The notes under the pieces were generated by a model that searched no databases, was not told the DNA's origin, and was given only the letters and a program-made list of their open reading frames with translations. The translations under genes and the position numbers were made by a program. A stretch of DNA of 13,726 bases. Origin: a virus. Location of the stretch: IMG/VR virus record IMGVR_UViG_3300045988_103295, positions 1 through 13,726 of that record; one strand, given 5' to 3'. Positions 1 through 13,726 of this stretch are shown in pieces (the first letter of the stretch is position 1; each line of letters starts with the position of its first letter).

Positions 1-134
1 ATTCCTATAATAAAAAAATAATTGTCGGTTCCCCAACGTCTGTGAGTTAGTTATAACTATCTGCCTATTAGTCACCTCTAACCACACTTATAAACAACAT
101 TCAATGCATAACGTCTGTTATATAACGAGGTATC

Positions 135-182
135 AACTCAACTGTCAGTAGAAAAATTTGTTCCAAAACTCAACTAACAGTA
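135..182 (+). promoter_or_regulatory. Two direct repeats AACTCAACTnnCAGTA (135..150 and 167..182), operator-like, just upstream of the ITR promoter -35
   Basis: The two 16-nt copies match at 14/16 positions and their starts are 32 bp apart (about 3 helical turns). The first copy contains the palindrome ACTGTCAGT (141..149). A mirrored copy lies in the right ITR at 13545..13592. Confidence 0.5.
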
Positions 183-184
183 TC

Positions 185-213
185 TTCACATCATCCGCCG
201 AATGTGCTATTAT
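185..213 (+). promoter_or_regulatory. Left-end early promoter inside the ITR
   Basis: -35 TTCACA (185..190), a 17-nt spacer ending in TGC (extended -10), and -10 TATTAT (208..213). The predicted start is near 220. The leader carries AAAGGGA (249..255) 7 nt before the ATG at 263. Confidence 0.65.
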
Positions 214-262
214 ATACGTGTAAAGAGGAAGGAAACCTCACAAACCAGAAAGGGAATTTTTT

Positions 263-490
263 ATGAAGACCGTGAAAATCTCCGCCGATGCTTACACCCG
301 TCTGAAGCTCGAGCGTATCTATGACACTCGCTCCTATCGCTACATTGTTGATGAGGACAAGGTTTACCGCATTGCCATTGATGCTCTTGACACGTCCTCC
401 GCTTTGGCTGACGCAAGCGACATTAACCCGCACGGCTGGGAGCGCGTTTATCTGCGTCTGTCTAATGGGGAGGTCAAGGAATATGTCTGA
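263..490 (+). CDS. Early protein, 75 aa, unknown function; N-terminus MKTVKISADAYTRLKLE looks like a ribbon-helix-helix/antitoxin-type strand-helix
   Basis: ATG lies 4 nt after the ITR boundary, with the SD AAAGGGA upstream. First gene downstream of the ITR promoter. Confidence 0.7.
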   Translation: MKTVKISADAYTRLKLERIYDTRSYRYIVDEDKVYRIAIDALDTSSALADASDINPHGWERVYLRLSNGEVKEYV

Positions 491-698
491 TTTCCGGGTT
501 TTAGCGGTACAGTATCTCCGGGCTCAAACACTCACCCAAATAACAGATTTAGCCCGCCGAAGTTACAAGGGTGTTACCCATGAAGAACGCGAAGCTCTAA
601 TTGCCATCGCACGGGTTATCACTCGTGAAATTATAGCAAAGAGGCAAGAAGCCCGCAGGAAGGCCGTGCATGATGAAACAGGCAAAGCTAACTCGTGA
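483..698 (+). CDS. Early protein, 71 aa, helical and charged, unknown function
   Basis: The ATG at 483 is preceded by GGGGAGG and overlaps the stop of the upstream gene. The longer 321..698 ORF version lies out of frame inside the first gene. Confidence 0.6.
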   Translation: MSDFRVLAVQYLRAQTLTQITDLARRSYKGVTHEEREALIAIARVITREIIAKRQEARRKAVHDETGKANS

Positions 699-900
699 GC
701 AAATCGCCGACTTGTACCGCAAGGGTTACACATTTACAAAATCTTACTATTATTGGACAGCATGTGAGGATGCCAACATAGCAAATCGCATAACTCGTGC
801 GGAATTCATGGCGCGTTCCATCGCAGAACCGCTTCTTGGCGTTGAACAAGTCCGGATTTATGAGAGATTATATAAAGGGAGGAAGCCAGATGCACGCTAA
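670..900 (+). CDS. Early protein, 76 aa, unknown function
   Basis: ATGATG start preceded by AGGAAGG. Same strand and operon as the flanking small genes. Confidence 0.6.
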   Translation: MMKQAKLTREQIADLYRKGYTFTKSYYYWTACEDANIANRITRAEFMARSIAEPLLGVEQVRIYERLYKGRKPDAR

Positions 901-1135
901 TTACTTACTCGCTTGTTACGACGCGGACGGAAAGGAATTGTTTGTTTGTTGCGACGGGAAAACCCGTTACCAGTTTTTCACACGCAAAGCAGCTGCGAAA
1001 GCGCTTGAAAAAGCAATTGAATGCATTTCCGCGGTGCAGTGCGCAAAGCTCTATCGTCGCCGCCGTACCGGTGGTTATCGCTGGGTTGCTACACGTTTTC
1101 GCGGAGGGGCACATCTTGCGGCATGGGGTGAATAA
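890..1135 (+). CDS. Early protein, 81 aa, Cys- and Arg-rich, unknown function
   Basis: The ATG at 890 is preceded by AAAGGGAGGAAG (875..886) and overlaps the upstream stop. The gene ends at the TAA that enters the terminator palindrome. Confidence 0.6.
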   Translation: MHANYLLACYDADGKELFVCCDGKTRYQFFTRKAAAKALEKAIECISAVQCAKLYRRRRTGGYRWVATRFRGGAHLAAWGE

Positions 1136-1157
1136 AGGGAGGGCATGCCCTCCCTTT
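1134..1157. terminator. Bidirectional intrinsic terminator between the convergent left and right transcription units
   Basis: Perfect palindrome AAAGGGAGGGCA/TGCCCTCCCTTT. On either strand the GC-rich stem is followed by TTTATT. It sits between the stop at 1135 (+) and the stop at 1162 (-). Confidence 0.8.
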
Positions 1158-1161
1158 ATTG

Positions 1162-2616
1162 TTACACGCCAACCGCTATCCAGTCTACTGCGAACTGCTC
1201 ATGCGTCGATGTGCCGGAAAGCCTGATTTTAGCCGAACTTGTAGTTTTAGCAAAAATTAACTGGCTCCTTGTTACACTATCTGCTACTGCGCCCGTGTTG
1301 GCAAAAGTCGCAACCACAGTCGGGATTTCGGTAAATCCTGCCGACTGATAATCAATAATGGAGTCTTGGTCTTGGTACGCCAGCACATGCCCAGTTGCGA
1401 TTTTTGGCATATTCTGGAATTTGGCAATAGCTGTTTCCAAATCGGATAAGCGCGAATTGATAGAGGCTTTATCCGTCGGATAGTCCGATGTACCATTAAT
1501 AGCGGACCGATTATTCCAGCTCCAATTAAAGGCAGGGTTGATTCTGAGCGCCATTGGCACATTTTCCGACCAAACGCCGATGGTATCCCACAGCGTATTA
1601 TATTTCGATTCTGCGGGTTTCGTGCCGATTTTTTCCAGCGCCGATGAAGCGGTGGAAGCTGCCGTTGTTGCGGTTGACTTGGCAATAGCGGCGTTGTTGT
1701 CCGCCGTTTCCGCCTTGGTGTACGCCTCCTGCACTTCGGCTTCTACGTTACCTAATTCAGTAGCAAGTTGTCCAGTTTTTTCATCTACATACGACGTTGT
1801 TGCATATTGTTCGCCGCTGTCATTTCCTGCCACAAATACAAATGTTCGCACGCGGATGCGCATATAATCAGCTGTGTTTTCACCCTTGGAATTAGCTTCA
1901 ATTTCATAATGATTGTATTTTGCACCAGTTTCAGTAATAAGCGGTGAACATAACAAAATAATGTTATCAGAATTTCCAACATCCGTTACAACTGCCGTTT
2001 CGCGCTCAGCAATTGCGAAGTCGAACTCAGGCACAGTCGAAGAAGGTCTGAAGCGCGTTCCTCTTGCCGTATTTGCCGGAATGGAAATAACTGTTGTGCT
2101 GTTTTGCTTGACCAGCGAACCGGGTCTAAGCGCCCCCTCAATTGTGTTTAGACGCGCCTGAATAGTTCCTTTGGTAATATCATACATGCCATCAGTTCCA
2201 GCAATAGAACGATGATTTTCTTTTCCCTCCGCTTGCACTTGAAGCAATTTACTGCCGATTGCCTGTGTAGCGCCATATTCTCCAATGGTGCTCCAAATGC
2301 TGCCAAAATTTGGCACTGAAGGCTTTACGCCAATGTTTTTTTCCGCTTCCACCATTCGACCGTTTAGACCGCTGATGCTTGTCGTGTGTGCTGTAATCTG
2401 ATTTTGGAGCTCTTGGTCTGCGGTTGTTCGCGCGGAACGTTCGCCGCTGATTTTTTCGTCAAGCGCAGCATCTTGTTCGTCAACATATTCTTTGCTTACA
2501 TTGCCGCTTTTTTCCAGCGTATCAACTCTACCATCAAGTTCTTTGATTGATTTATAAGCCCAATCAAGATTCTGTTCGTGAAAATTCGTAAAGGGAAATT
2601 GCTCCCAAATACCCAT
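1162..2616 (-). CDS. Tail fibre / receptor-binding protein (gp12 position), 484 aa
   Basis: Last gene of the structural operon, RBS GGAGGTG. The N-terminus has heptad-like coiled-coil stretches. There are two tandem modules, each starting IGxKP...W.TIG. The C-terminal segment FTEIPTVVATF...FAVDWIAVGV resembles an H-type-lectin-like domain. Confidence 0.7.
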   Translation of the reverse strand: MGIWEQFPFTNFHEQNLDWAYKSIKELDGRVDTLEKSGNVSKEYVDEQDAALDEKISGERSARTTADQELQNQITAHTTSISGLNGRMVEAEKNIGVKPSVPNFGSIWSTIGEYGATQAIGSKLLQVQAEGKENHRSIAGTDGMYDITKGTIQARLNTIEGALRPGSLVKQNSTTVISIPANTARGTRFRPSSTVPEFDFAIAERETAVVTDVGNSDNIILLCSPLITETGAKYNHYEIEANSKGENTADYMRIRVRTFVFVAGNDSGEQYATTSYVDEKTGQLATELGNVEAEVQEAYTKAETADNNAAIAKSTATTAASTASSALEKIGTKPAESKYNTLWDTIGVWSENVPMALRINPAFNWSWNNRSAINGTSDYPTDKASINSRLSDLETAIAKFQNMPKIATGHVLAYQDQDSIIDYQSAGFTEIPTVVATFANTGAVADSVTRSQLIFAKTTSSAKIRLSGTSTHEQFAVDWIAVGV

Positions 2617-2632
2617 ATATTTACACCTCCTA

Positions 2633-3241
2633 TTAATACACCCAAATTAAAAACCGCTTTTGAAAATCCCGAATAACTGCATCATAGAAATTGAACATTG
2701 CAACGCGCCGTTCACTTTCCAGCATTTTCTGTGTTGTGGTTACGCCGATGTTACCATGAATACGCCCTTTTCGAGTTCCTGTGCTTGTTCCCGTTCCGGC
2801 ACTATCGCTTGTGTCCGCGCTGGTGCTTGCGCTGGTGCTTGCGCTATTGTCCGCAGGGTTTTGCAAATCATTGTAACCGTAAACCTGTTCTTTTGTTGAG
2901 CCGCTGGAAGTGTTGTTTGCGGAATTTGTATATCGTGAATTGTTTATGGTGCTTTCCTGCCATTCTTCAATTCTGTCATAATTTTCTATCGGATTATATT
3001 CCGCCGTTAGCGTTGCGGTAAGGTGTTCCCAGCTATATTGCGAGATGCTCGACCACACCCGAATTAGCGTTTTAAGTAAAGGTGGGGACGAATAAAGAAC
3101 GGGCATTTCTCCGCACTGCATCAATAGCGAATCAACGAAATCTTGCACCGATATATTAGAGGGAAATTCCACGCCGTCAAAGATGGAAGGGTCAAAATTA
3201 TACATTGTCGCCAGCATCACGCTCAATCTTATCACCTCCAT
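2633..3241 (-). CDS. Lower-collar-like / tail tube protein (gp11 position) with a Ser/Thr-rich low-complexity segment
   Basis: Assigned by synteny between the portal and fibre genes. The start is uncertain: the ATG at 3241 has no SD. Alternatives are TTG 3226 (GGAGG 8 nt upstream), ATG 3217, or ATG 3205 overlapping the portal stop. The function call rests on position only. Confidence 0.5.
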   Translation of the reverse strand: MEVIRLSVMLATMYNFDPSIFDGVEFPSNISVQDFVDSLLMQCGEMPVLYSSPPLLKTLIRVWSSISQYSWEHLTATLTAEYNPIENYDRIEEWQESTINNSRYTNSANNTSSGSTKEQVYGYNDLQNPADNSASTSASTSADTSDSAGTGTSTGTRKGRIHGNIGVTTTQKMLESERRVAMFNFYDAVIRDFQKRFLIWVY

Positions 3242-4121
3242 TTATGTCATGGTCAATCGGGTAACGTCTTTCACAGGTGATTGTCACGCCGAACGCGCTC
3301 TGAACCTTGCGGATGCAATCCTGTATGGTGTCAAACCATTGTGCAACGATTGTGTCGGTTTCAACGTCGTTCCGTTCCGCTTCAGCTGTAATCAACCGTT
3401 CTTTTTTGTCGGTGTTACAAGTCGGGATTCCTACGCGGGTGTCAAATTCTGCTTCAATTTGCCTCATGTTGGAAAGAATTCTGTCCGCAATATAGTTCTG
3501 TCCCACGTTCTGTGCGAATGGCGCCCACGAGGGGGATCCATCATCGTTAAAAAGGGCTTTATCCACCCATACCGCTAATTCTCCAGATGTTACCCTGTCC
3601 ATCAATTCTTTGCCAGTTTGTGCGGCATTTTTAGAACTGCACGCAAACACATAGGAAAGTTTAGAATTCATAATGTTCATTGCGAGCGATTCAACGGATG
3701 TTGCAAGTAAGTCCGCGTAATAATTAACAATGTCTAACGCGCCGTGATAATCGCGTTGCAACCGGAAAAGAACGCAATCCTTATCAATTTGCAAGCGCAT
3801 CGGTGGCAAAAGGGGATTTGCAATCATCACGGTTGTCGGTTGATAGAAAACATTGTATCCATACAATGCGCCAGCCTGCGGAATTACACCGTAACGCTTG
3901 CTGTTAAAAATCGCCACGCTTCCCCATGCATATAAACATCCGAGAAAATACGTATCGCTCCAACCTTCAGGCAAGCTCCATTTGAATTGACTTGTTAGTT
4001 TCTGGAATAAATAGCGCTGGTAGTATTGGAAAAGCGCCGTATTTTTGGTATGGCAAGTAGAGGGGGAAATACTCGACTCATAGGCATTAATACGGTTGTA
4101 ATCAAAGGGGGGATTATTCAC
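3198..4121 (-). CDS. Portal / upper collar connector protein (phi29 gp10 family), 307 aa
   Basis: Size matches phi29 gp10 (309 aa). GIPTCNTDKKERLITAEAERNDVETD parallels gp10 [26 protein letters not shown], and FKWSLPEGW parallels gp10 LFEWENLP. GTG start at 4121, preceded by GAGGAGG, with no in-frame ATG nearby. Confidence 0.85.
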   Translation of the reverse strand: MNNPPFDYNRINAYESSISPSTCHTKNTALFQYYQRYLFQKLTSQFKWSLPEGWSDTYFLGCLYAWGSVAIFNSKRYGVIPQAGALYGYNVFYQPTTVMIANPLLPPMRLQIDKDCVLFRLQRDYHGALDIVNYYADLLATSVESLAMNIMNSKLSYVFACSSKNAAQTGKELMDRVTSGELAVWVDKALFNDDGSPSWAPFAQNVGQNYIADRILSNMRQIEAEFDTRVGIPTCNTDKKERLITAEAERNDVETDTIVAQWFDTIQDCIRKVQSAFGVTITCERRYPIDHDINGGDKIERDAGDNV

Positions 4122-5580
4122 CGGTTTCCGCCTCCTCTATATAAAATCCTGATTGCATATAGCGTGTTAGTTCATCGCGTTCTTCTCCGTAACAATTAGT
4201 TACCGCCGACGTATCGGGATTATTTATAAGCGTATATCCTGATAAGTTTTCCAAATTAACTGTTGCGCAAAGAGGTCGCCCATTTATTTTGGCATTTTGT
4301 TCAGCAGTATATGTATATACAACATCTACATATTGCGGCATTGCGTATTTTGCAATAGAAGCGTTTGCTGAAAATGAGGATACAGAGCCAAAACCATCTG
4401 ACACCGAGGTTGCTATATTATTAATACTATCAGATACACTATTTAACGCTTTTGCATCCCCCAGAATCGCGGCACCGACGCCGCCTACACCAGCCGCGAC
4501 ACTTCCAGCTATTGAAATAACATCTTGCCCATATCCAGTTTGCGCTAATTGAATATCAACTCCAAATTGTGACTCCCGAACTCCTAACACATGATATTTG
4601 TTAGCCTCTGCGCCGCACAAATAATAAGCGATTGACCCTCCCGTTGTAAAATCTATATATGCCCTGATTGTTATATTTTCGCCATATTTAGTTAGCGACG
4701 TTGTGTCTACCTGAAAATAACCCCATGGGGCAAGATTGATTGCTATTTGCCTATACGGATAGCAATTTTTCCATTCATCCTGTTTAATATATCCAGTGCC
4801 GCAGTAAAAAGATTTTGTTGTAACGGTGGATGAAGATAACAGGCGCGCGGATGTGCCCGCCAATTCCCAACCTGAAACCTTAACAGTTGTTAAAGTATCT
4901 AATGTCGGTGGCTTTATAGGATACCATCTGCAAGATACGATATATTGAAAAGGATTTACAATAGCTTTTAACAGTTCCGCCGAAATTTCTGCAACATTTA
5001 CACCCATATAACTATAATCAGTTAGTAACTTACTTCTAAAATATGTAAATTGTGTTTGTGACATAACATAGTACGATACAGCACCAACTGCGGTAGCTTC
5101 CGCGCCGATGATACCTACAACATACCATCCCTCGGACATAACTGATACATAGCCAGTTCCATCTATTTCATAGGTTTGTTTTTCCCCTTTTGCCAAAATT
5201 GGCAAAGAAGTATCTATAATGCGTGAATTATACTTGCTTGCAGACCTGATAACATATTGCGTTGACTTCTTCAACCGCCCCCAAAAAGACGCTAATACAT
5301 CCGTACGCAATTCAAAAAAGACTCTGTTTCGCTCAAACGTTACATTTTCCACGAAATATGAGCGCTCAAACAATGGAATAAACACATAATTCACGCTTTG
5401 CGGTCTGTACCGGTTATTTGACCATATTAAACTTATAACAGGATTTTGTACATTTGTATTATCCTTCAATACAACATCATATTTTAGGCTATCTTCATAA
5501 GATGTTACCGATGGATTGTAGGTCGAATTTCTGCGTTTCCCGACATTGGTAAACCATGCTTCCATTCTTTTCATCTCCAT
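4114..5580 (-). CDS. Tail knob / distal tube protein (phi29 gp9-like), 488 aa
   Basis: The N-terminal segment NYVFIPLFERSYFVENVTFERNRVFFELRTDVLASFW resembles the conserved gp9 N-terminal block (...WFYAFVTELEF...HFEIDVLQTW). It lies immediately upstream of the portal gene, as in phi29. Confidence 0.7.
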   Translation of the reverse strand: MEMKRMEAWFTNVGKRRNSTYNPSVTSYEDSLKYDVVLKDNTNVQNPVISLIWSNNRYRPQSVNYVFIPLFERSYFVENVTFERNRVFFELRTDVLASFWGRLKKSTQYVIRSASKYNSRIIDTSLPILAKGEKQTYEIDGTGYVSVMSEGWYVVGIIGAEATAVGAVSYYVMSQTQFTYFRSKLLTDYSYMGVNVAEISAELLKAIVNPFQYIVSCRWYPIKPPTLDTLTTVKVSGWELAGTSARLLSSSTVTTKSFYCGTGYIKQDEWKNCYPYRQIAINLAPWGYFQVDTTSLTKYGENITIRAYIDFTTGGSIAYYLCGAEANKYHVLGVRESQFGVDIQLAQTGYGQDVISIAGSVAAGVGGVGAAILGDAKALNSVSDSINNIATSVSDGFGSVSSFSANASIAKYAMPQYVDVVYTYTAEQNAKINGRPLCATVNLENLSGYTLINNPDTSAVTNCYGEERDELTRYMQSGFYIEEAETGE

Positions 5581-6314
5581 TTATTAGCCGCTTTGCAAAT
5601 AAACCAAATAGGCAAGCTATTCAGATTGATTTTTTGTAATTTATCATACCAATAATTAGCCCATTGAATACGATATTTGCTCGTCGCTTCCCAATCCGTG
5701 ATTGCAGGGCGCTCATAGCATAGACAAAAACTCTTTGTCAACTGCTCAATATCTGTACTATCAGTAAAGTAAAAATCTTGGAAATCGGGATATATTGTGC
5801 CGCCCTCCCATTGATAGTTATGCTCTACCTCGTACATAATGCGCGCTATCTGGATGCTTCCGTTATACCAACAATCGAGCCCCGAATAGGCGCCATTTGT
5901 TCCAAATATTTCAAGCGCCCAATCTATATATTTGTCCGCGCCTGTCCATTGTACAAGCCCAAAACCGTATTTTTTCTCGGTATTTTGCTTGTAATTATTG
6001 GGGTCGGGACTCGGCGCATGTCCGCCTTGCCATATGGCGGGATTGAGTGTAGATTCCCGGCACATATTCCCCAGCATTGCCGCTATTTGTGGGACTTTCC
6101 ATCCGTTTTTATACAGACCAGTTGCAATAAGTACGCCGTTTGTTTCGCTCGCTGTCTCATGGTCTTGATAGTCAAAATATGGGTCGTCGTATATACTATA
6201 ATACCACTCCTGCGGCAACCGAAACGGCTTGTACCAATGGGGATAGCGGGTTGCTGTGCTGTCCACAGCAGGGACTATGTTGCTACCGGGCATCCTCTGT
6301 CTATCTCCTGCCAT
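5571..6314 (-). CDS. Virion-associated peptidoglycan hydrolase (phage tail lysozyme domain), 247 aa
   Basis: GNMCRESTLNPAIWQGG and YGFGLVQWTG match the signature of the phage tail lysozyme family (GN..ES.NP / GiGlaQWT). The ATG at 6314 is preceded by AGGAGG. The upstream ORF extension to 6386 lacks an SD. Confidence 0.75.
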   Translation of the reverse strand: MAGDRQRMPGSNIVPAVDSTATRYPHWYKPFRLPQEWYYSIYDDPYFDYQDHETASETNGVLIATGLYKNGWKVPQIAAMLGNMCRESTLNPAIWQGGHAPSPDPNNYKQNTEKKYGFGLVQWTGADKYIDWALEIFGTNGAYSGLDCWYNGSIQIARIMYEVEHNYQWEGGTIYPDFQDFYFTDSTDIEQLTKSFCLCYERPAITDWEATSKYRIQWANYWYDKLQKINLNSLPIWFICKAANKWR

Positions 6315-6387
6315 GTTGCGCCTCCTGCATTTTCTGGTAAAGTTATTTACCAACACATTTTGGAAAATCGCACAGAATCGCCTCAAA

Positions 6388-6465
6388 AGTAATAGCCCTG
6401 TATTTCTATGTTATTAACTTGGGCGCCTTATAGGGCCTGTTTTGTGCGAATACAGGGCTATTACT
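6388..6465 (-). terminator. Long hairpin after the capsid gene: 17-bp perfect inverted repeat around a 44-nt loop, followed by UUUU on the minus strand
   Basis: AGTAATAGCCCTGTATT (6388..6404) pairs with AATACAGGGCTATTACT (6449..6465). On the minus strand it begins 6 nt after the capsid stop and is followed by TTTTGAGG. Confidence 0.45.
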
Positions 6466-6471
6466 ATTAAG

Positions 6472-7647
6472 TTAATCCATCAGAATAACAATACCCTTTT
6501 CAGTAAAGTCAATGGCGTGTCGCTCGTTGTACTTCCAGAAAATATTGTAATACTCGCCCTTTGCGTTTGGCGGAGTCACCCTCTGCCGCGTGAGAATCGG
6601 ACTATAGCCGAATGCGTCACGGTCGCAAATAATCCCAAGCACGTTGCCCTGATTTACATCAGCCGTCGCCGTTGCAATAGTGCCGTCAGCATCGAGGTAC
6701 TGAGGCTTTACAACATTGATTTTCTGAGGGTCGGTCATAATCTGCCAGTAATTGACATATTCAACATCGCCCGCCATGCGAAGGAAATTGTCATGGAAAG
6801 TGTCCGCGAGCGCCATCATGTTAGTTTGATGCATAAACATCGAGTTAAGATAAACACGCTGTGCGGACTTTGGGCTGTGCTGGAGGAATACGCCATCTGC
6901 ACTATTGGTCTGATAAAGACTGGAATATTCTGTCAGCATATCGGACAAGTTAGCAAGACGGGAAAAAGCCCACTGTGTAAACGCTTTATAATTTGCGGGT
7001 TGCATAACGGTTGTAGCGGTTAGCTCAAGCCCTGTCAGCGTGTTATACTCTGTGAGCAGATGAATAACATCGGCTTTCTGTGCAATCTTGCCAGCGGCAA
7101 ACCCGGCAACGGTTGCGCGCGCGGTTTCTTCGTGCGTCTTCTCAATTTTGTTATTCATATTGGTCAGAATCATCGAAATAAATGCACCGAAATCTTCTGC
7201 AGAATTGAACGCCGTGTTTAACTGCGTTTCAAAAATAGTTTTTTCGTATTCGTAGCTTTGCTGACCATAAAAGTTAAACTGCGCAACCTTTGGTTTATGA
7301 ATCGTGTACTGGTCAACGCTTTCGCCGTCCGTCAAGTCGCAATAGGGATTATCTGTCAGGTCGTCAGGGTCGTCGATTGTCTTAATTTTCCTCACCCAGT
7401 TTCCCCACTGGTCGCCGGGAATCCGCATACCCTCAAACTTCGCTTTGTATGGGCGGCTGGAAAAAATTGTACGCGAAAGCATCTGCGAAATTGCGTTCAT
7501 TACAGGGTCGGCGCCCGTTTTCAACGCCTTCTGTCCGAGCGTCAACAACTGCTTAGTGTCAAGCGCGGCTGTATCCTGCCCGGTTGCATCTTTAAGCACT
7601 GCTTTCAGCAGGGTGCTAATTTTATCAATAGTCAGCGTATTCGCCAT
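6472..7647 (-). CDS. Major capsid protein, 391 aa
   Basis: Large ORF directly after the scaffold gene, with RBS GGAGGTG 7 nt upstream. Position and size fit the picovirus-type capsid gene. No diagnostic motif was recognised by eye. Confidence 0.75.
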   Translation of the reverse strand: MANTLTIDKISTLLKAVLKDATGQDTAALDTKQLLTLGQKALKTGADPVMNAISQMLSRTIFSSRPYKAKFEGMRIPGDQWGNWVRKIKTIDDPDDLTDNPYCDLTDGESVDQYTIHKPKVAQFNFYGQQSYEYEKTIFETQLNTAFNSAEDFGAFISMILTNMNNKIEKTHEETARATVAGFAAGKIAQKADVIHLLTEYNTLTGLELTATTVMQPANYKAFTQWAFSRLANLSDMLTEYSSLYQTNSADGVFLQHSPKSAQRVYLNSMFMHQTNMMALADTFHDNFLRMAGDVEYVNYWQIMTDPQKINVVKPQYLDADGTIATATADVNQGNVLGIICDRDAFGYSPILTRQRVTPPNAKGEYYNIFWKYNERHAIDFTEKGIVILMD

Positions 7648-7662
7648 ATTTTAACACCTCCA

Positions 7663-7983
7663 TCAGTTCGGGCGAATGATTTCCGACAAAACATCCTCCG
7701 CTGTCAACGGCTTGCTATTGTCAACCTGTGCATTCTGCAAATTGCCCTTCTGCACAATGCCGGTCAGGTTCGCAATTTGCTGGAAAACCTTGTCAAATTG
7801 CGCCTGTGTATTATCGGGTGCAGATGCCGGTGCAGATGCCGGTGCAGACGCCGGTGCAGATGCCGGTGCAGATGCCGGTGCAGATGCCGGTGCAGATGCA
7901 GGTGCATCAATCGTCATCAGCTTGCCGATTTGCTCCGCCGTAAATCCGGCTTTTGCCAGCGTCAAAATGTCAGATACATTCAT
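7663..7983 (-). CDS. Scaffolding-like protein, 106 aa, with an (APAS)x7 linker
   Basis: Small helical protein immediately upstream of the capsid gene (phi29 gp7 is 98 aa in the same position). RBS GGAGGT, and the start overlaps the endolysin stop (TAATG). Confidence 0.6.
   Translation of the reverse strand: MNVSDILTLAKAGFTAEQIGKLMTIDAPASAPASAPASAPASAPASAPASAPASAPDNTQAQFDKVFQQIANLTGIVQKGNLQNAQVDNSKPLTAEDVLSEIIRPN
7817..7907. repeat. 12-nt tandem repeat GGTGCAGATGCC, about 7.6 copies, in frame within the scaffold gene
   Basis: Direct reading finds units at 7817, 7829, 7841 (1 mismatch), 7853, 7865, 7877 and 7889 (1 mismatch), plus a partial unit. Translated on the minus strand they give APASAPAS... 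Confidence 0.95.
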
Positions 7984-8486
7984 TATTTGTTACCTCCATA
8001 TTTGTTTACAAGCGTTACAAGTTCACCGTATAGCTTTGAATATAGTTCGTTCTCATCCGGCACAGGCGTGTTGACAACCTCAGACGCATAGTATAGGCAA
8101 TTAGCCTTTGCGTGATGCGTCCACCGCTTTCTATTGTTAATTTTGTCCATCTGCACGCCGCCCTTCGTCGAGTGGATAACTTCTCCGTTTCCGATGTAGA
8201 TGCCAACATGTGAGGCATTAACTCCATCGGTATAGCGCTTTGGCTCGTTTCCATCATGTTTTATGGTAAACACCCATTCTCCTACATCGACATTATCAAA
8301 ATTGTCGGATTTATCATGCACAGCGTTGCGCCACATATCGTTTGAGCCTCGCCAGTCCTTTTTGATATTGGCATATTTTCTTAGACAGTATTCGACAAAT
8401 GCTTGACAATCAAGTGTGGCGTATGGGATTCCGATTAGATTATTTTTGTCTGCGCTGATTTTTTCCGCCCATTCTACTGCAATCAA
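7983..8486 (-). CDS. Endolysin, NlpC/P60-family cell wall peptidase, 167 aa
   Basis: Catalytic Cys context LDCQAFVEYC and the typical His block SHVGIYIGNGEVIHS. TTG start overlapping the holin stop (TTGA), preceded by GGTGATGA. Confidence 0.85.
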   Translation of the reverse strand: MIAVEWAEKISADKNNLIGIPYATLDCQAFVEYCLRKYANIKKDWRGSNDMWRNAVHDKSDNFDNVDVGEWVFTIKHDGNEPKRYTDGVNASHVGIYIGNGEVIHSTKGGVQMDKINNRKRWTHHAKANCLYYASEVVNTPVPDENELYSKLYGELVTLVNKYGGNK

Positions 8487-8677
8487 TTATCATCACCGCC
8501 CAACTTATCAATGAGGTGCTGCATCACAATCGTATTATTATTGATAGCGTCTTTTAATTCTGCGGTTTCTTCCCGGTGCTGTTCGCGCTCTTTGTTCCAG
8601 AAATAGAAAAGCGCGCAAGTGCAAGCAATCGGAAACCCTACGTTTGTAATGAGCGTAACAATGTCGGAAAATTCCAT
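8483..8677 (-). CDS. Holin, BhlA/UviB-like, 64 aa
   Basis: MEFSDIVTLITNVGFPIACTCALFYFWNKEREQ... has one N-terminal transmembrane segment followed by a charged coiled tail, as in BhlA-type holins. ATG 8677 is preceded by GGGAGGG. The GTG extension to 8701 lacks an SD. Confidence 0.75.
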   Translation of the reverse strand: MEFSDIVTLITNVGFPIACTCALFYFWNKEREQHREETAELKDAINNNTIVMQHLIDKLGGDDN

Positions 8678-8706
8678 ACACCCTCCCATCCCCGGAAACA
8701 CAAAAT

Positions 8707-8780
8707 GGCAATAGGGGTCGAGGCATACGACTATGCCATGCTCACCCTTCCGGGGTTGTCGTTCGAGCTACCCTATTGCC
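8707..8780 (-). ncRNA. 74-nt structured RNA element (three-way junction) at the 5' end of the late transcript; function unknown
   Basis: Coordinates below run 5' to 3' on the minus-strand RNA. P1 is a 10-bp stem, GGCAATAGGG (8780..8771) with CCCTATTGCC (8716..8707). P2 is GCUC (8768..8765) with GAGC (8743..8740), enclosing the hairpin ACCC-CGGAA-GGGU. P3 is GGCAUA-GUCG-UAUGCC (8737..8722). The element starts at the predicted transcription start and is followed by AUUUUGUGUUU. Confidence 0.55.
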
Positions 8781-8786
8781 GATTTT

Positions 8787-8815
8787 AATATAGCATAATT
8801 TTTTATATTTGTCAA
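8787..8815 (-). promoter_or_regulatory. Late promoter (near-consensus sigma70 type)
   Basis: On the minus strand: -35 TTGACA (8815..8810), a 17-nt spacer ending in TGC (extended -10), and -10 TATATT (8792..8787). The predicted start at about 8780 coincides with the first G of the structured RNA. Confidence 0.75.
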
Positions 8816-8818
8816 GGC

Positions 8819-9838
8819 TTATTTAATTATGCCGAAATATTGACAGAAAACAATTTCGCAAGCAGGGGATTCACAATAAATTTTCCGCTCAATATATGCT
8901 ATCATCAGATAGCGATAAAGCGTGCGAAATCGTAAACAATCATTTTCCGTAGTGCTGTATATCGGGCGCGTTCCTTGCCCGTGCGGGCTAATATAATATG
9001 TTCGATTGTTTTTGTGCCGATAAACTGTAATTTCACCACACGTTACAAGCGGCGTGTACTCTTTGAGGTTCGCGCTCATGGTTTGCAATACAGGTTTATC
9101 CAAAAAGCGATTTTCAAGCGACATATCTTTTATTTTATTATCTTTGAGTAGACGATAAAGCGCAGTTTCTCCCTTCTTCCTGCTGATAGGACTATTGCGC
9201 AAGTTTATCAGATACAATCCGCGCTCACCGTCTTTATATTCCTGTGTTTCCTGCTCCGCCATTTTATATGCAATCGTGATAAGCCCTAAACTTTGGAAAA
9301 TCGGGTTTACAATGCTGTTACTATTGGCAAGGCATAAACACTTCACAGGGGGCTTACCTTGCAGCTCTCTATTTCTGTTTATTGTTTCATATGCATTAAA
9401 AAACGCATCCCCTTCATTTTTGATTCTGCGCTCATGCGATTCTGGAATAAATTCATCAAATATGATAATTTCAATATCATGCGCGGAAAAACCGCGAATA
9501 TTTGATACACCAGATAAAGCCATTACATAGCCTGCCGGTGTGCTTTCCTCGTTGATATATACAGCCGTCGCTTCCTTGGAGACTTTATCCATTTCGAGAG
9601 ACACGGACATATCATCGCATACGGGCGCAAAAGGTGACATTTCAGGCGCGCTAATAACATCCGCTTGTAGTTTCGTTCGTCTCATATAGATAAATTTCAT
9701 TTTATGTTCAATCACATATTTAAGTGCGCCATAAGTTTTACCCGTACCTCTTGCGCCCGTCATGAGAATAAATGTATATTTTTGTTCTATGATTCTCGCC
9801 ATGTCAACATAGCCATTTTTCAAAAATAGGTTATTCAT
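8819..9838 (-). CDS. DNA packaging (encapsidation) ATPase, phi29 gp16-like, 339 aa
   Basis: Walker A GARGTGKT near the N-terminus and Walker B IEIIIFDEF. Size is close to gp16 (332 aa). RBS AGGAGGG. Confidence 0.85.
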   Translation of the reverse strand: MNNLFLKNGYVDMARIIEQKYTFILMTGARGTGKTYGALKYVIEHKMKFIYMRRTKLQADVISAPEMSPFAPVCDDMSVSLEMDKVSKEATAVYINEESTPAGYVMALSGVSNIRGFSAHDIEIIIFDEFIPESHERRIKNEGDAFFNAYETINRNRELQGKPPVKCLCLANSNSIVNPIFQSLGLITIAYKMAEQETQEYKDGERGLYLINLRNSPISRKKGETALYRLLKDNKIKDMSLENRFLDKPVLQTMSANLKEYTPLVTCGEITVYRHKNNRTYYISPHGQGTRPIYSTTENDCLRFRTLYRYLMIAYIERKIYCESPACEIVFCQYFGIIK

Positions 9839-9848
9839 ACGCCCTCCT

Positions 9849-9882
9849 AAAAAATAAAGGCATGGTTCATCGCCATGCCTTT
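9849..9882 (-). terminator. Intrinsic terminator between the replication genes and the ATPase gene
   Basis: Minus-strand RNA reads AAAGGCAUGG-CGAUGAA-CCAUGCCUUU followed by AUUUUUU, and directly abuts the ATPase SD. Confidence 0.75.
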
Positions 9883-9889
9883 ATATGCG

Positions 9890-10240
9890 TCACTCGAAAA
9901 TCAACTCGCAGGAAGTATAGTTACGATTATTCTTGCTCCGAATCTGTGTAATCTGCACCTTGAAGCCTACATCGTTCATTCCTGCCGTGCCCAGATAATC
10001 AACAATGGCGAGAAGTCGTTCGCTGAACGCTCTGCCGTTCGTGATGTAGGGCACGCCGTCAACGATAATTCCGCAACGAGGCTTAAATTCACCGTTGCTG
10101 TCAACGGTTTCTGCAACCGCCCAGGCATCAACCCGAACGGTTTTCTTCATCAACTCCGACATAGGGTGCCCTTCGCGGGAAAGCGTCAGCTTGTACAGTT
10201 CCGCCGGGGAAATGCTCTGATTAGTCTTCGTGTTACTCAT
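9890..10240 (-). CDS. Hypothetical protein, 116 aa; candidate replication accessory (SSB or DNA-binding) protein by position only
   Basis: ORF with RBS AGGAGGG immediately downstream of the polymerase gene. No motif recognised. Confidence 0.6.
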   Translation of the reverse strand: MSNTKTNQSISPAELYKLTLSREGHPMSELMKKTVRVDAWAVAETVDSNGEFKPRCGIIVDGVPYITNGRAFSERLLAIVDYLGTAGMNDVGFKVQITQIRSKNNRNYTSCELIFE

Positions 10241-10271
10241 GGTGAAGCCCTCCTAAATATTTGTTCGGCGG

Positions 10272-12290
10272 TTATCGCCTAATAAGATTATAGCACATAT
10301 TGCGGTCAGCGTCAACACTTATATAAGCGTTCTGCAATGCTTCGAGTAAGTCTGCGTATTTGTAGGTAATTCCCACCGCATACGTTGATGGGCGCAAGCA
10401 TACGTTTCGGGTTACTGTTAAATCATGCCCATCCACGCTGATTTTCTTGTATACATGGTCATTGTAAACACTTTCAAGCCCTCCCGCTTTTCGGAAAACA
10501 AAACCGGGCGCGAATTTTATAAGCCCCCCGGCTTCTTCCAGTTCATCAGCGCCGCCCCACTCTACAATGTCGCCCGCAGCGTTTTTACTGGATTTTTTTC
10601 GTACACCAGCAATAGTTATATCTATATGCCCCTTTTCATCCTGTGACGCATATTTTTTCGCCCCCCATGTTAAAAACTGATAATATTCACCCTCTATTTC
10701 TGCAACCCCCATATAGTGCAATGTTCCGTGGGGGTCTGCGGCACAGGCTCCATGTTCAAGGGATGCCGTCTTGCATCTTTTATTGTAGGATTCATAGCTA
10801 ATTGATTCTGATTTTATATATTTACAGCTATCCGTATCGGCATAAACAAAATTATTCCCTGCAATCTTTATCATTTCCTCCAACTCAAGCCTTGCGTACG
10901 CTGTAACCCATACACCCCATTGATACGGCAGGAATGATTTTTTGATATTTTTAATTACGTCTGTTTCCTGCTGAATGTATTCATCGCCGTCGAATATAAT
11001 ATCATCTTTTCCGGGGTCTGTGGCTGTCATGCCATATAAGCTATTCAGCAGATTCTTGCTTTTCATATATTCATATTCGCTCCCTTCAATTCCTTTAAGC
11101 GAAGTTTTGTTTGTATAGTAGCGTTTTATACAGTCCGTAAAAGGTTTTGGTAAATAGTCCTTCTCTGCCGTATATATATCTGTAAAATCAAATTCACCAT
11201 CATATTCTTCGAGAATTATCTGCATATCTACTTCTGTTACTTCAATCGTCAGTGCATCCGCTTCGAGAACGCGCCCATTGTCTTCAAGTGGATTTATTAA
11301 CATTTGACATTTACTTACAGGAATATAAGGACACCCCCACAACGGATTTCGCAAAGTCGCCCTAGTTATTGACATAGTGCAAAGAATTGCAAGCCCGGAT
11401 GCAAATGCACGCCTAATAGTTGCTATTCCGTCAGGACATTTTTTAAATGGCTTCATTGGAAATTTCTGGTTCAGCATTACATCAGGATAACTTGACGAAC
11501 GGTCGACGGATTCCACCCCAGAAAGCACCTTACCGACGAAATAGCGGTTAGCGTGCGTGTTCCCACCACGAAACGCCTTGCGCAGTTTTCTATATATTTC
11601 TTCCGTGGGTTTAAGCGCCCCCAGCGGTATTTGGCTTAACGCCTGTTTCGCATCCCTGCGAACGTAGCCCGTAGACGTGCGCGGAACTGAATACAGAGTG
11701 TCGCCGTCTTGCGAAATCTTCTTTTTGGCTGCTTCAAGTAATCCGATAACGTCATTTTGGCAATATTCAATCTCCGCTTCTGTTAGTTCAGTCCACGGAT
11801 AGCGGATTTTAGAATAGTCAAATTCCGCTCCGGACTTCTTCATGTGCTGGACATTCATTTCCTTCAGAAATTTTGAAAGCGTTTTATTCGTCCAGATGTA
11901 GGAACAGCGATATTCAATGCAACCGCAAGTTGCAGACAATATTTTCCGAGCTTTAAGACACTTAACATCAGAAAAATCATAAAGTCCTGCGAGGAATTGG
12001 AATTCATATGAAAGATTGTGAACAAGACAAATTATTGTAATTCCACCCAGTCGCGATTTTAATGCTTCCTGTAATGCAGTCCATTCTTCCCACGTTCTCC
12101 CATATGTGATATAGTATTCTCCGGCTACATAAAGCCCGCATTGCCAGATGTACATTACAGCATTATCATCTTCAAGCCGGGTTGTTTCAATGTCAAACGC
12201 CATCAGCGCATCAGCGTATACGATTTTAGCCCTTGGGTTATCAGGCGATAACGCCGTTATTTTTGAGATTCCCTCATATACGCTGAGCAT
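10272..12290 (-). CDS. Protein-primed family B DNA polymerase, 672 aa
   Basis: Exonuclease motifs: Exo I FDIET, Exo II HNLSYEFQF, Exo III YCQNDV. Polymerase motifs: A DRSSSYPDV, B KNLLNSLYG, C YADTDS, and KxY GAKKYA. The combination with ITRs and an upstream terminal-protein-sized gene indicates the protein-primed subgroup. Confidence 0.93.
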   Translation of the reverse strand: MLSVYEGISKITALSPDNPRAKIVYADALMAFDIETTRLEDDNAVMYIWQCGLYVAGEYYITYGRTWEEWTALQEALKSRLGGITIICLVHNLSYEFQFLAGLYDFSDVKCLKARKILSATCGCIEYRCSYIWTNKTLSKFLKEMNVQHMKKSGAEFDYSKIRYPWTELTEAEIEYCQNDVIGLLEAAKKKISQDGDTLYSVPRTSTGYVRRDAKQALSQIPLGALKPTEEIYRKLRKAFRGGNTHANRYFVGKVLSGVESVDRSSSYPDVMLNQKFPMKPFKKCPDGIATIRRAFASGLAILCTMSITRATLRNPLWGCPYIPVSKCQMLINPLEDNGRVLEADALTIEVTEVDMQIILEEYDGEFDFTDIYTAEKDYLPKPFTDCIKRYYTNKTSLKGIEGSEYEYMKSKNLLNSLYGMTATDPGKDDIIFDGDEYIQQETDVIKNIKKSFLPYQWGVWVTAYARLELEEMIKIAGNNFVYADTDSCKYIKSESISYESYNKRCKTASLEHGACAADPHGTLHYMGVAEIEGEYYQFLTWGAKKYASQDEKGHIDITIAGVRKKSSKNAAGDIVEWGGADELEEAGGLIKFAPGFVFRKAGGLESVYNDHVYKKISVDGHDLTVTRNVCLRPSTYAVGITYKYADLLEALQNAYISVDADRNMCYNLIRR

Positions 12291-12292
12291 TC

Positions 12293-12994
12293 CTAAATCT
12301 TCCCTTCTCTTTTGGCTTTTTCAAACATTGCGCGAACCGTTGAACCGCTCACAAATTCCCCTGCTTTAAGCCGTTCTTTATATCGCGCCCTTGCTTTATC
12401 GGCTTGTCGCTCCCAATAGTCCCACCTTTTTAATAAGTCCTCCCAGTCCGATTTTGCAAATTTCCGCTTAACGCGGGTAGTTCCTTCCTGCGATACATCA
12501 ACAATATCTTGCAAGATATAATAGTATTGCGCTTCTTTATTCGCATCGGCGTAAACCGCGAAAAATTTTCGGAATTGTAGAAAATCCTCATATATGAATG
12601 TTTCTTCTGTAAACCAACCACGCTGTAAGAGTGTTTCATATTCGCGTTTCCACTGGTTTTGTTGTGCCACAAATAACTGTTGTGGTGTTTTTGACCCGCT
12701 AACAACTTTCCACATGGCACGAATCTGCCGAACGCCTTCCTCAACTGTTCGTATCGTGGAGGGTTTATCCCAGTAATGTCTCTCATATTGTTTAATGCTT
12801 TCGTACTCTATCCCCTTCTTCCTTGCCGCCTTGAACCGCTTATCCATTAAATCAATAAGCGATTTCATCTCTTTTCTAACATCTTTTAGCGTCAAACCAG
12901 CTTTGGGAATTTTTGTACCTACATATACAGACGCGGGAAGCGGACGATTTTCAAGCGCTGTACTTTGCGCGAATCGTTTATTCCACCTTGCCAT
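12293..12994 (-). CDS. Candidate terminal protein, 233 aa
   Basis: Basic, Trp-rich, charged protein encoded immediately upstream of the polymerase gene with a 2-nt gap, as gp3/gp2 in phi29 (gp3 is 266 aa). RBS AAGGGGG. No sequence motif was recognised; assigned by synteny and genome type. Confidence 0.55.
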   Translation of the reverse strand: MARWNKRFAQSTALENRPLPASVYVGTKIPKAGLTLKDVRKEMKSLIDLMDKRFKAARKKGIEYESIKQYERHYWDKPSTIRTVEEGVRQIRAMWKVVSGSKTPQQLFVAQQNQWKREYETLLQRGWFTEETFIYEDFLQFRKFFAVYADANKEAQYYYILQDIVDVSQEGTTRVKRKFAKSDWEDLLKRWDYWERQADKARARYKERLKAGEFVSGSTVRAMFEKAKREGKI

Positions 12995-13163
12995 TTATAA
13001 GCCCCCTTCTCAACAATTCGTTGTAAACGGTTTTAATACAGAGGCGTGCGGCCTTTGACATATTGTCCATTCTGGTAATGCAGCAAATTTCTTTTAGTCG
13101 CTTCAAATCTTCTGGATACATGGATAGCGTCATTCTCTTATATCTACGTACTTTATTATTCAT
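12978..13163 (-). CDS. Ribbon-helix-helix (CopG/Arc-like) DNA-binding protein, 61 aa
   Basis: KRMTLSMYPEDLKRLKEICCITRMDNMSKAARLCIKTVYNELL fits a strand-helix-helix pattern. The preferred start ATG 13163 forms an ATGA overlap with the upstream mini-ORF stop. The alternative ATG 13178 has no SD. Confidence 0.6.
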   Translation of the reverse strand: MNNKVRRYKRMTLSMYPEDLKRLKEICCITRMDNMSKAARLCIKTVYNELLRRGLINGKVE

Positions 13164-13216
13164 TGTTGCAACCCCCATGTTACAAGAATTACAAGCATGA
13201 TTGCCGTTAGTAACAT
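13160..13216 (-). CDS. Possible 18-aa hydrophobic mini-ORF (MLLTAIMLVILVTWGLQQ)
   Basis: GGAGGTGA (13224..13231, minus strand) lies 10 nt upstream of ATG 13216 and serves no other start codon. The TGA stop overlaps the ATG of the RHH gene. Confidence 0.35.
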   Translation of the reverse strand: MLLTAIMLVILVTWGLQQ

Positions 13217-13233
13217 TTCGTTTTCACCTCCGG

Positions 13234-13464
13234 TTATTGTCTCCAAACGTAACGGGTTAAATTGTAATAGCGGGCAAGCGGTTCGATTTGTTCATAACCA
13301 ATAATTATGCCGCGGTCGCACTGCACCTTGAACGGAAAAACCTTTACCTCCGAACCATCATAAAGGCTTGCGATTCCGTAAATTATTCTACCCCCCTCCA
13401 CATAGTAACGGAAACCGCTGCGTGTGACGTGCCAACCTTCGCGGGTGATAATTGATTTATTCAT
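13234..13464 (-). CDS. Right-end early protein, 76 aa, unknown function
   Basis: ATG 13464 lies 4 nt inside the ITR boundary and uses the ITR-encoded SD. The TTG at 13470 is an alternative start. Confidence 0.65.
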   Translation of the reverse strand: MNKSIITREGWHVTRSGFRYYVEGGRIIYGIASLYDGSEVKVFPFKVQCDRGIIIGYEQIEPLARYYNLTRYVWRQ

Positions 13465-13468
13465 GTGC

Positions 13469-13726
13469 AATTCCCTTTCTGGTTTGTGAGGTTTCCTTCC
13501 TCTTTACACGTATATAATAGCACATTCGGCGGATGATGTGAAGATACTGTTAGTTGAGTTTTGGAACAAATTTTTCTACTGACAGTTGAGTTGATACCTC
13601 GTTATATAACAGACGTTATGCATTGAATGTTGTTTATAAGTGTGGTTAGAGGTGACTAATAGGCAGATAGTTATAACTAACTCACAGACGTTGGGGAACC
13701 GACAATTATTTTTTTATTATAGGAAT
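13469..13726. repeat. Right inverted terminal repeat (258 bp)
   Basis: Exact reverse complement of 1..258. Confidence 0.97.
13514..13542 (-). promoter_or_regulatory. Right-end early promoter inside the ITR (mirror of 185..213)
   Basis: Identical sequence by ITR symmetry: TTCACA, 17 nt (ending TGC), TATTAT on the minus strand, directed inward. Confidence 0.65.

Follow-up and report, generated by a model that had tools for sequence, protein, structure and literature searches.

A 13.7-kb virus sequence with 258-bp inverted terminal repeats is very probably the near-complete linear genome of a small phi29-like podovirus

Small relatives of phage phi29 are well represented in sequence collections. 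A 2024 review counted more than 2000 phi29-like entries, many of them human-gut metagenome-assembled genomes (MAGs) of 12-15 kb, with clusters of 11-14 kb; one of its examples is a 13,822-bp cluster with 45% GC and a suggested Bacillota host (PMC11476376). Here we describe the IMG/VR virus record IMGVR_UViG_3300045988_103295, analysed over its whole length of 13,726 nucleotides (nt) and referred to below as the window, with particular attention to its inverted terminal repeats (ITRs) and to the genes for replication and packaging that lie between them. The window is very probably the near-complete linear double-stranded DNA genome of a virulent phi29-like podovirus, uncultivated and probably from the human gut, which represents a genus-level lineage and whose replication is most likely protein-primed. 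Protein searches recovered two groups of relatives: unannotated 12-15 kb gut genomes named 'Bacteriophage sp.', and the cultured phages Amedibacillus AD70P2/P3 (12.3 kb), Astrithrvirus (11.6 kb), Pectobacterium DU_PP_III, Acinetobacter Phanie, Entb_47 and Vibrio K58 g2 (10.4 kb). A first-pass annotation had called the genome unusually small, a view that does not hold against cultured relatives of 10.4-12.3 kb (all those just named except Entb_47) and gut MAGs of 12-15 kb. Size (10-14 kb) and gene order are typical of the clade, and the window is a new species-level member of a documented group, the small phi29-like gut podoviruses.

The window has a GC content of about 44% and carries 19 genes, defined by the list of open reading frames (ORFs) together with the genes called on an identical public contig; they cover 93% of the window (Table 1). 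Four small genes on the plus strand (263-1135) run inward from the left ITR, and 15 genes on the minus strand (13464-1162) run inward from the right ITR; along the window the cumulative GC skew declines monotonically, which fits the location of nearly all genes on the minus strand. No tRNA genes were found in the window, and searches of its proteins against Pfam, PHROG and other families returned no terminase nuclease, integrase or lysogeny genes.

The replication and virion genes are of the phi29 type. In the protein-primed family-B DNA polymerase (PolB) the motifs are intact (ExoI DIETT, ExoIII YCQND, motif A DRSSSYP, motif B KNLLNSLYG, motif C YADTDS, and KKY), and a profile of the clade's PolBs had a single match in PDB, the phi29 DNA polymerase (1xhx/2ex3; E 5.6e-16), extending from ExoIII to motif C and including TPR1/TPR2. 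[quoted passage not shown] The packaging ATPase is of the gp16 type and has no nuclease domain. Family searches identified the major capsid protein (MCP) and the connector, while the lower collar, the SSB and the tail knob, which had no Pfam or PHROG match, were settled by profiles of clade homologs or by the fold of an AlphaFold2 (AF2) model. The clade profile of the lower collar (A4) matched phi29 gp11 (6qz9, E 5e-39) and the lower collar of P68 (6iac, E 8e-7). The AF2 model of the knob (pLDDT 79.5) matched 5fb5 in Foldseek (E 4.7e-13, prob 1.00, TM 0.52) and nothing else significantly, and the clade profile matched 5fb4 with E 0.005. The window thus combines a protein-primed PolB, a gp16-type ATPase and the virion core (MCP, connector, lower collar, knob) that define the broad group of phi29-like podoviruses, in which Salasmaviridae, Rountreeviridae, Guelinviridae, Madridviridae, Astrithrvirus and relatives without family assignment are counted. 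A full but minimal gene set had been claimed; all identifiable hallmark genes are indeed present, but the terminal protein (TP), the scaffold and the fibre are placed by position only and the holin assignment is weak.

The two ends of the window, each over 258 nt, are exact reverse complements of one another, as the first-pass annotation had stated. If four mismatches are permitted the repeat reaches 267 nt at 99% identity, and a 258-nt repeat in 13.7 kb cannot be due to chance. Complete contigs of the wider clade have ITRs of 75-405 bp, and the ITR of the window is 85-92% identical, with conserved blocks, to the PolB-side ends of close relatives. Four independent relatives (L001, L008, L009 and L011) all start at the same base with GGGTATTCC. 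In the sister contig L015 an Illumina adapter is fused directly to the GGG terminus (GGG in the region of positions 28-35), and in L078 an adapter is joined straight to AAAGTT; adapters that abut the termini in this way mark physical DNA ends. Adapter remnants (Illumina/Nextera) were seen within positions 1-40 at the ends of six IMG/VR contigs (L015, L018, L054, L067, L068 and L078); they are database contamination and, where they abut AAAGT or GGG, also a marker of the true genome end. A 13,210-bp ENA contig (ERZ28576773, sample SAMEA4545315, scaffold_2619; L088) is 100% identical to positions 259-13468 and lacks precisely the two 258-nt ITRs. This contig is a second assembly of the same genome, interrupted at the edges of the repeats, and stopping at both boundaries is how a true repeat would be expected to show itself in an assembly graph. 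Judged from these comparisons, the ITR is real and not an artefact. The window begins with ATTCC at both ends, as against GGGTATTCC in the four relatives, so about 4 nt (GGGT) are probably missing from each end. The terminal reiteration (GGG or AAA) typical of such linear genomes is seen in the relatives, while the window stops about 4 nt short of it, and the earlier description of the genome as complete has to be softened to near-complete, linear and with long ITRs.

Searches of IMG/VR found 116 PolB relatives. In 13 of them PolB is 89-95% identical in amino acids (aa), and the nucleotide sequence is 80-88% identical over 41-99.8% of the window (83-99.8% in the eleven that are near full length). 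The genus threshold of at least 70% nt identity is exceeded, for instance, by L008 (86.8% over 99.8% coverage) and L002 (87.6% over 98.3%) in the cluster L001-L013, and the species threshold of at least 95% was reached by no retrieved relative, the only identical sequence being the other assembly of the same genome. The proteins of the window itself are already public, in JGI/IMG and in ENA, as those of a 13,726-bp contig. At 90% identity the MCP falls into a cluster of 168 members on contigs of up to 14.06 kb. The phages collection contained a single near match at the DNA level, MT839743, a 4-kb human-faecal fragment with 81% nt identity and 88% aa identity in PolB. The window-like gene layout recurred in all nine related genomes whose gene maps were examined. 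At the level of BLAST, the window shares nine of its 19 proteins with MT835998, seven with AD70P2, four with astrithr, three each with phi29, Cp-1 and phiCP7R, one with Mycoplasma P1 and none with P68. Within the genus some modules are replaced: the knob gene (4119-5570) occurs as two alleles that are about 36% identical, and the first left-arm gene (255-487) and the spacer after the MCP gene (6298-6471) are non-homologous in most relatives, whereas the fibre is conserved.

Symmetric ends can also be made by an assembler or by amplification, and the ITR might then be an inverted duplication or chimera of a genome that is in truth circular, permuted or furnished with direct terminal repeats. 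The exact identity of the two copies and the symmetry of the ends, such as would result from an assembler copying one repeat node, are compatible with this, as are the existence of L088 without ITRs and the extra bases found at one end of the relative L103. Yet many independently assembled relatives have ITRs, and of varied length; four of them share their first base, adapters abut the termini of L015 and L078, and the ITR sequence evolves with the genome while keeping its conserved blocks (see above). The replication and packaging genes (protein-primed PolB, gp16 ATPase without nuclease) are moreover those of phages with linear TP-linked DNA, and ITRs of 143-350 bp are carried by Cp-1, Mycoplasma P1, C1 and P68. 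Taken together, these observations make an artefact extremely improbable. Only slightly more credit can be given to a linear protein-primed plasmid or phage-plasmid living in a carrier state instead of a strictly lytic phage. Phi29-like examples of this kind exist in the Enterococcus EF62phi/pBE32_2 group (PMC11476376), and distant relatives of the window sit in bacterial MAG bins; nevertheless, family searches of the window's proteins detected no partition, toxin-antitoxin, repressor or integrase genes, the 93% coding density with a full virion and lysis set leaves no room for maintenance functions, and all homologs lie on contigs of at most 15 kb, all of which makes this way of life very improbable.

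That the window belongs to an already established ICTV family, Guelinviridae or Salasmaviridae, and is not a separate lineage, is unlikely, although there is more to be said for it. AD70P2, with which the window has seven of 19 proteins and the gene order in common, is filed by NCBI under Guelinviridae; the PolB motif A is of the form Dx2SSYP reported in the Guelinviridae of C. perfringens (PMC3362512); and PolB adjoins the ATPase in phiCP7R as well. Against this, BLAST detected in phiCP7R only PolB, ATPase and connector, at 23-26% identity, and missed MCP, collar and knob; the Guelinviridae PolBs fell short of E 1e-5, except for that of the unclassified HM2; and Amedibacillus phages cluster apart from the Clostridium Guelinviridae by MCP and terminase (PMC11476376). 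With phi29 and Cp-1 just three of 19 proteins are shared, those of phi29 at 23-34%, the phi29 layout differs in having the ATPase last and in p4/p6, and the packaging RNA (pRNA), whose gene lies near the left end in Salasmaviridae, gave no Rfam match. The genus Astrithrvirus, for which at least 70% nt identity is the threshold, yielded no megablast match and four of 19 proteins at 23-37% aa. The first-pass annotation had deduced a distinct lineage from the gene order. The order itself was described correctly, but it cannot carry that conclusion: the succession from TP, PolB and ATPase to MCP, knob, connector, collar and fibre is common to AD70P2, and the adjacency of PolB and ATPase is found in phiCP7R and P68. 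What stands is that, at BLAST level, neither Salasmaviridae nor Rountreeviridae nor bona fide Guelinviridae include the window (three, none and three of 19 proteins with phi29, P68 and phiCP7R, at 23-34%), while its kind is already documented; similar genomes are public, though none of them is classified.

Several observations weigh against a protein-primed phi29-like phage with linear ends as the best description of the window. The GGG terminus is not contained in the window itself, and the case for linear ends is built on assembled contigs. In L103 (14,195 bp) 13 extra nt (ACATGCATTTTCC) precede TATTCC at one end, an oddity that could come from strain mixture or from an assembly artefact; the other end of this contig is GGGT, and several positions differ between its two ITR copies. 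Neither in sequence nor in fold does the candidate TP show detectable similarity to the TPs of phi29 and Cp-1: hhalign gave a null result with both, its sequence profile had no match in PDB, and its AF2 model (pLDDT 73.7) had no significant fold match in Foldseek. To the family that occupies the TP slot elsewhere in the clade the candidate is only marginally similar (hhalign probability 47%, E 2e-4). The host assignment (Bacillota, see below) is tentative. Finally, no pRNA was found: there was no Rfam match at E<=1 in the window, and neither the ITR nor the spacer between ATPase and holin (8678-8818) folds better than shuffled sequences. The packaging motor may therefore differ from that of phi29, and a very divergent pRNA is possible; pRNA is known only from the Bacillus phi29 group (PMC11476376).

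The call of a terminal protein in the first-pass annotation was thus positional, and it remains so. The candidate gene ends 2 nt before the start of PolB, in the same slot as the TP gene of phi29 and Cp-1, and of 80 genomes with a PolB, 79 (78 of the 79 fetched relatives, and the window) have an ORF of 165-318 aa there. Homologs of the window's candidate are confined to three subclusters. Two families can be told apart among the TP-slot proteins: one comprises those of the window's lineage, the other those found elsewhere in the clade, AD70P2 and astrithr gp02 included. The invariant residues Y24, T35, Y70, Y119, Y148 and Y158 of the candidate are possible sites of linkage to the DNA. A similar situation has been met in the C. 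perfringens podoviruses, in which the gene next to the polymerase gene was called TP although BLAST failed, and in which protease-sensitive ends were shown for phiCPV4 (PMC3362512). From its position, its size and its all-alpha, basic character, the 233-aa product is a reasonable but unproven candidate for the terminal protein.

The ITR contains a short C-rich tract that recurs at a fixed distance from the ends of related genomes. A CCCCA motif starts 32-37 nt from the true end in seven of 12 sequence-distinct termini of the clade (background 4.3e-4 per position, binomial P 3e-13), the remaining five being truncated, adapter-shifted or not true ends; the clade contigs that carry it in their first 40-70 nt are L001, L015, L017, L024, L032, L053 and L078. 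CCCCA lies at 31-40 nt also in the right ends of phi29, B103 and GA-1 and in Cp-1, phiCP7R, C1, Av-1, P68 and Mycoplasma P1; the ends of L090-L101 were among those compared. The terminal sequences flanking it are unrelated among these phages, and in phiCP7R it lies beyond the 25-bp ITR. It is absent from the deposited ends of AD70P2 and astrithr. No earlier description of the tract was found in the searchable literature, a scope that excludes older reviews of the phi29 family and leaves priority uncertain. The sequence AACGTCTG occurs twice in the ITR, at 35-43 and, within the palindrome ATAACGTCTGTTAT, at 109-118, and both copies are kept in close relatives. The terminal 26-mer had no match in a scan of metagenome contigs. 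At 24-37 there is a terminator-like hairpin that faces outward; relatives do not conserve it, and it was treated as chance.

The wider clade mostly starts with 5'-AAAGT or AAATT, as phi29 does, whereas the window's genus and its sister start with 5'-GGG, and it is the same lineage that has the separate TP-slot family. Two proposals are put forward tentatively, neither of which we would call probable: that the position-fixed CCCCA is an unappreciated universal element serving as origin, as docking site for TP and DNA polymerase or in packaging, and that the change from AAA to GGG co-evolved with the primer protein, replacing dAMP by dGMP as the initiating nucleotide in an otherwise conserved polymerase. 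A switch of this kind is made plausible by the GGG ends, by the need of the sliding-back mechanism for terminal repetition, and by the precedent of PRD1, which starts with dGMP on 3'-CCCC (PMC4974454).

The predicted promoter with the 5' untranslated region (UTR) and ribosome-binding site (RBS) downstream of it is the most conserved part of the ITR, and this leader ends 4 nt ahead of an ATG at either end of the genome. Since promoter, 5' UTR and RBS are identical in each ITR, both early operons would share one control region. The two 16-nt direct repeats upstream of the promoter are kept in the alignment of the relatives' ITRs and may be regulator-binding sites.

From these elements the following life cycle can be proposed. 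At both ends of the genome the phi29-type PolB would be primed, on the 3' end of the ITR, by the TP, for which the 233-aa product of the gene upstream of PolB is the most likely candidate; the p5-type SSB would coat the displaced strand. Because the relatives start with 5'-GGG, initiation is suggested to take place with dGMP on a 3'-CCC template and to be followed by sliding-back similar to that of PRD1. The identical inward promoter of sigma-70 type in each ITR would allow the two early operons to be switched on by the same signal, the right one comprising early genes, TP, PolB and SSB and the left one the four small genes. The terminator after the SSB gene may curb read-through into the gene of the gp16-type ATPase, and the near-consensus promoter downstream of the latter would serve holin, endolysin, scaffold and MCP and, beyond a leaky hairpin, tail lysozyme, knob, connector, lower collar and fibre. 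The ATPase would then package unit-length TP-DNA through the connector. The predicted promoters and terminators fall at the borders expected of such operons.

Table 1. Features of the window, in order of position (strand as read in the window; a dot marks a feature without strand)
Feature	Position	Strand	Basis or remark
Left ITR	1..258	+	Non-coding; ends 4 nt ahead of first ATG
TTCCCCAA tract	29..36; mirror 13691-13698	+	May be a conserved element for origin function or end recognition
Two 16-nt direct repeats, AACTCAACTgtCAGTA and AACTCAACTaaCAGTA	135..182	+	32 nt apart, just upstream of ITR promoter; mirror in right ITR
Predicted ITR promoter, TTCACA-17-TATTAT	185..213	+	Extended -10 TG (TGcTATTAT); reads inward; identical copy 13542-13514, - strand
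Left-arm early operon, 4 small genes	263..1135	+	263-490 (75 aa), 483-698 (71 aa), 670-900 (76 aa), 890-1135 (81 aa)
Perfect 15+15 palindrome, predicted bidirectional terminator	1131..1160	.	Where converging transcription meets
Putative tail fibre/appendage, 484 aa	1162..2616	-	Position; last late-operon gene, cf. gp12 after gp11 in phi29
Lower collar (phi29 gp11-like), 197 aa (202-aa ORF)	2633..3226	-	Clade profile A4
Connector/portal (phi29 gp10-like), 307 aa	3198..4121	-	PF05352 2e-17, phrog_2038 3e-31
Tail knob (phi29 gp9-like), 483 aa (488-aa ORF)	4114..5565	-	Fold
Tail-associated lysozyme, 247 aa	5571..6314	-	PF18013 2.9e-25; resembles N-terminal domain of phi29 gp13
Long hairpin, 23-bp stem, 44-nt loop	6382..6471	-	Right after MCP stop
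MCP, 391 aa	6472..7647	-	PF25622 Phi29_MCP 1.4e-19
Putative scaffold, 106 aa	7663..7983	-	Position directly upstream of MCP
NlpC/P60 endolysin, 167 aa	7983..8486	-	PF00877 7.9e-9
Putative holin, 64 aa	8483..8677	-	Single N-terminal hydrophobic segment; phrog_4898 holin 2.8e-4, phrog_9829 1.4e-6
Predicted near-consensus promoter, TTGACA-17-TATATT (TG)	8787..8815	-	ATPase-holin spacer; 11/12 matches
gp16-type packaging ATPase, 339 aa	8819..9838	-	PF05894 3.4e-20 over residues 15-302; phrog_2150 1e-40
Predicted intrinsic terminator	9854..9884	-	After SSB gene; 12-bp stem then TTTTTAGGAG
phi29 p5-type SSB, 116 aa	9890..10240	-	Clade profile A5
Protein-primed PolB, 672 aa	10272..12290	-	PF03175 7.9e-17, phrog_1907 3.6e-55
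Predicted near-consensus promoter	10315-10287	-	3' end of PolB
Candidate terminal protein, 233 aa, all-alpha, basic	12293..12994	-	Position upstream of PolB
Right-arm early genes	12978..13464	-	13234-13464 (76 aa), 12978-13163 (61 aa); Shine-Dalgarno (SD) check done
Right ITR	13469..13726	-	Mirror of left ITR

The remaining virion and lysis genes were assigned with varying firmness. The tail lysozyme is 34% identical to its phi29 counterpart in tblastn. In the knob model a Gly-rich, hydrophobic loop of low confidence (residues ~348-404 of the 488-aa ORF) is likely to be a membrane-insertion loop. The scaffold and the fibre are putative assignments made from position. The scaffold had no detectable similarity to phi29 gp7; it contains in its middle an (APAS)x8 stretch that derives from about eight copies of a 12-nt tandem repeat (7801-7908). 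The fibre had no homologs in Pfam, PHROG, PDB or cultured phages. For several genes the starts in the ORF list were too long, and the calls on the ENA contig were used instead (knob, tail lysozyme, lower collar, holin and the 61-aa early protein; lengths in Table 1).

The left-arm early genes, whose coordinates come from the calls on the identical ENA contig, have SD motifs. The rightmost early gene is cut at the end of that contig and was taken as 76 aa from the ATG that follows an SD. Neither the left-arm nor the right-arm early genes had family matches. The 61-aa early protein looked by eye like a ribbon-helix-helix protein; this idea was dropped, as PDB, Pfam, NCBIfam and PHROG gave it no support.

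Of the predicted signals outside the ITRs, the palindrome at 1131-1160 appears as a terminator-type stem in the alignment of an Rfam near-hit; this near-hit, to STnc320 at 1125-1172, is merely the terminator palindrome. The SD of the ATPase gene (AGGAGG) sits in the U-tail of the terminator that follows the SSB gene (9838-9884), with no promoter between them; expression of the ATPase would thus depend on read-through of the terminator. The promoter in the ATPase-holin spacer is predicted to serve the operon of lysis and structural genes. The hairpin after the MCP gene (dG -41.5 kcal/mol, z -5.6) is the sole strongly structured non-coding element of the window. Its stem is retained among relatives and its loop is variable; in relatives carrying the other allele of the tail lysozyme there is a long, unrelated hairpin, and it overlaps the RBS and start codon of the next gene, and L016 and L017 have canonical terminators at this site. 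It is probably a leaky terminator or a stabiliser of the 3' end of the mRNA. Placing a hairpin or terminator after the capsid gene is a well-known means of expressing the capsid protein in excess over the tail genes.

Several hints point to a host among the Bacillota. GGAGG SD sequences precede most genes, the predicted promoters have an extended -10, there is no spanin-like gene, and the only cultured-phage relatives of the endolysin infect Bacillus or Clostridioides; homologs of the endolysin are confined to contigs of at most 15 kb. Among MAG bins, those of Ruminococcus and Clostridia contain distant relatives, and a scan of genome contigs for PolB found only relatives of 34-36% identity, in Clostridia MAG bins.

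The genome adds one more species to a gut group of minimal tailed phages. Genomes of 19 genes mark a lower bound for a tailed virion combined with a protein-primed replicon, and could serve as a compact chassis or as a source of PolB, TP and SSB. If the 233-aa protein does prime with dGMP, the window would represent a naturally occurring version of the phi29 system that initiates with another base, and TP-dGMP priming or a function of CCCCA, if true, would inform the design of origins for protein-primed amplification.

Among known sequences the window is most like an uncultivated IMG/VR cluster (for example IMGVR_UViG_3300045988_077296, _070799 and _051471, with the GenBank fragment MT839743), which has the same gene set and order, a TP candidate of 84-93% aa identity, and a homologous ITR with the same promoter and repeats. 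The closest cultured relatives are AD70P2 and AD70P3 (Guelinviridae in NCBI). Their genes follow the order TP slot, PolB, small genes, ATPase, scaffold, MCP, knob, connector, collar and fibre, with small early genes at the far end as in the window. AD70P2 differs in its protein sequences (24-37% aa identity), its 55-bp ITR, the lack of a tail lysozyme gene, the position of the lysis genes, the other family of TP-slot protein and a GC content of 26.7% versus about 44%. Astrithrvirus (Salmonella phage astrithr) and its allies DU_PP_III, Phanie and Vibrio K58 g2 are likewise tiny and have PolB followed directly by the ATPase (PolB 33-37%, MCP 22-24%), but they infect Gram-negative hosts, have the connector before the MCP and an 18-bp ITR. 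Mycoplasma P1 (11.7 kb) is of comparable size and has 350-bp ITRs, each with an inward promoter; in contrast to the window only its ATPase is weakly similar, PolB is its first gene and its proposed TP lies downstream. PRD1 offers a parallel in mechanism only: its terminal G/C run (3'-CCCC), TP-dGMP and stepwise sliding-back resemble what the 5'-GGG of the relatives suggests (PMC4974454), while its membrane-containing, tailless virion is unrelated and no membership is implied.

Cp-1 (19.3 kb) resembles the window in its 236-bp ITR with promoter signals, its inward early genes at both ends, and CCCCA 36 nt from the end; the gene of its 230-aa TP overlaps with the beginning of PolB. The Cp-1 genome is larger by 5.6 kb, has the ATPase at the end of the late operon and an AAA terminus, and only its connector, ATPase and PolB are weakly similar (19-24%). 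Phi29 (19.3 kb) differs in its 6-bp ITR, the pRNA, the regulators p6 and p4, the head fibre, the divergent layout of early and late genes and the ATPase as last late gene. Yet it has homologs of the window's PolB, p5 SSB, gp16 ATPase, MCP, gp10, gp11, gp9 and the lysozyme domain of gp13, and its right end, TTTCCCCAT, carries a C-tract from 33 nt off the terminus.

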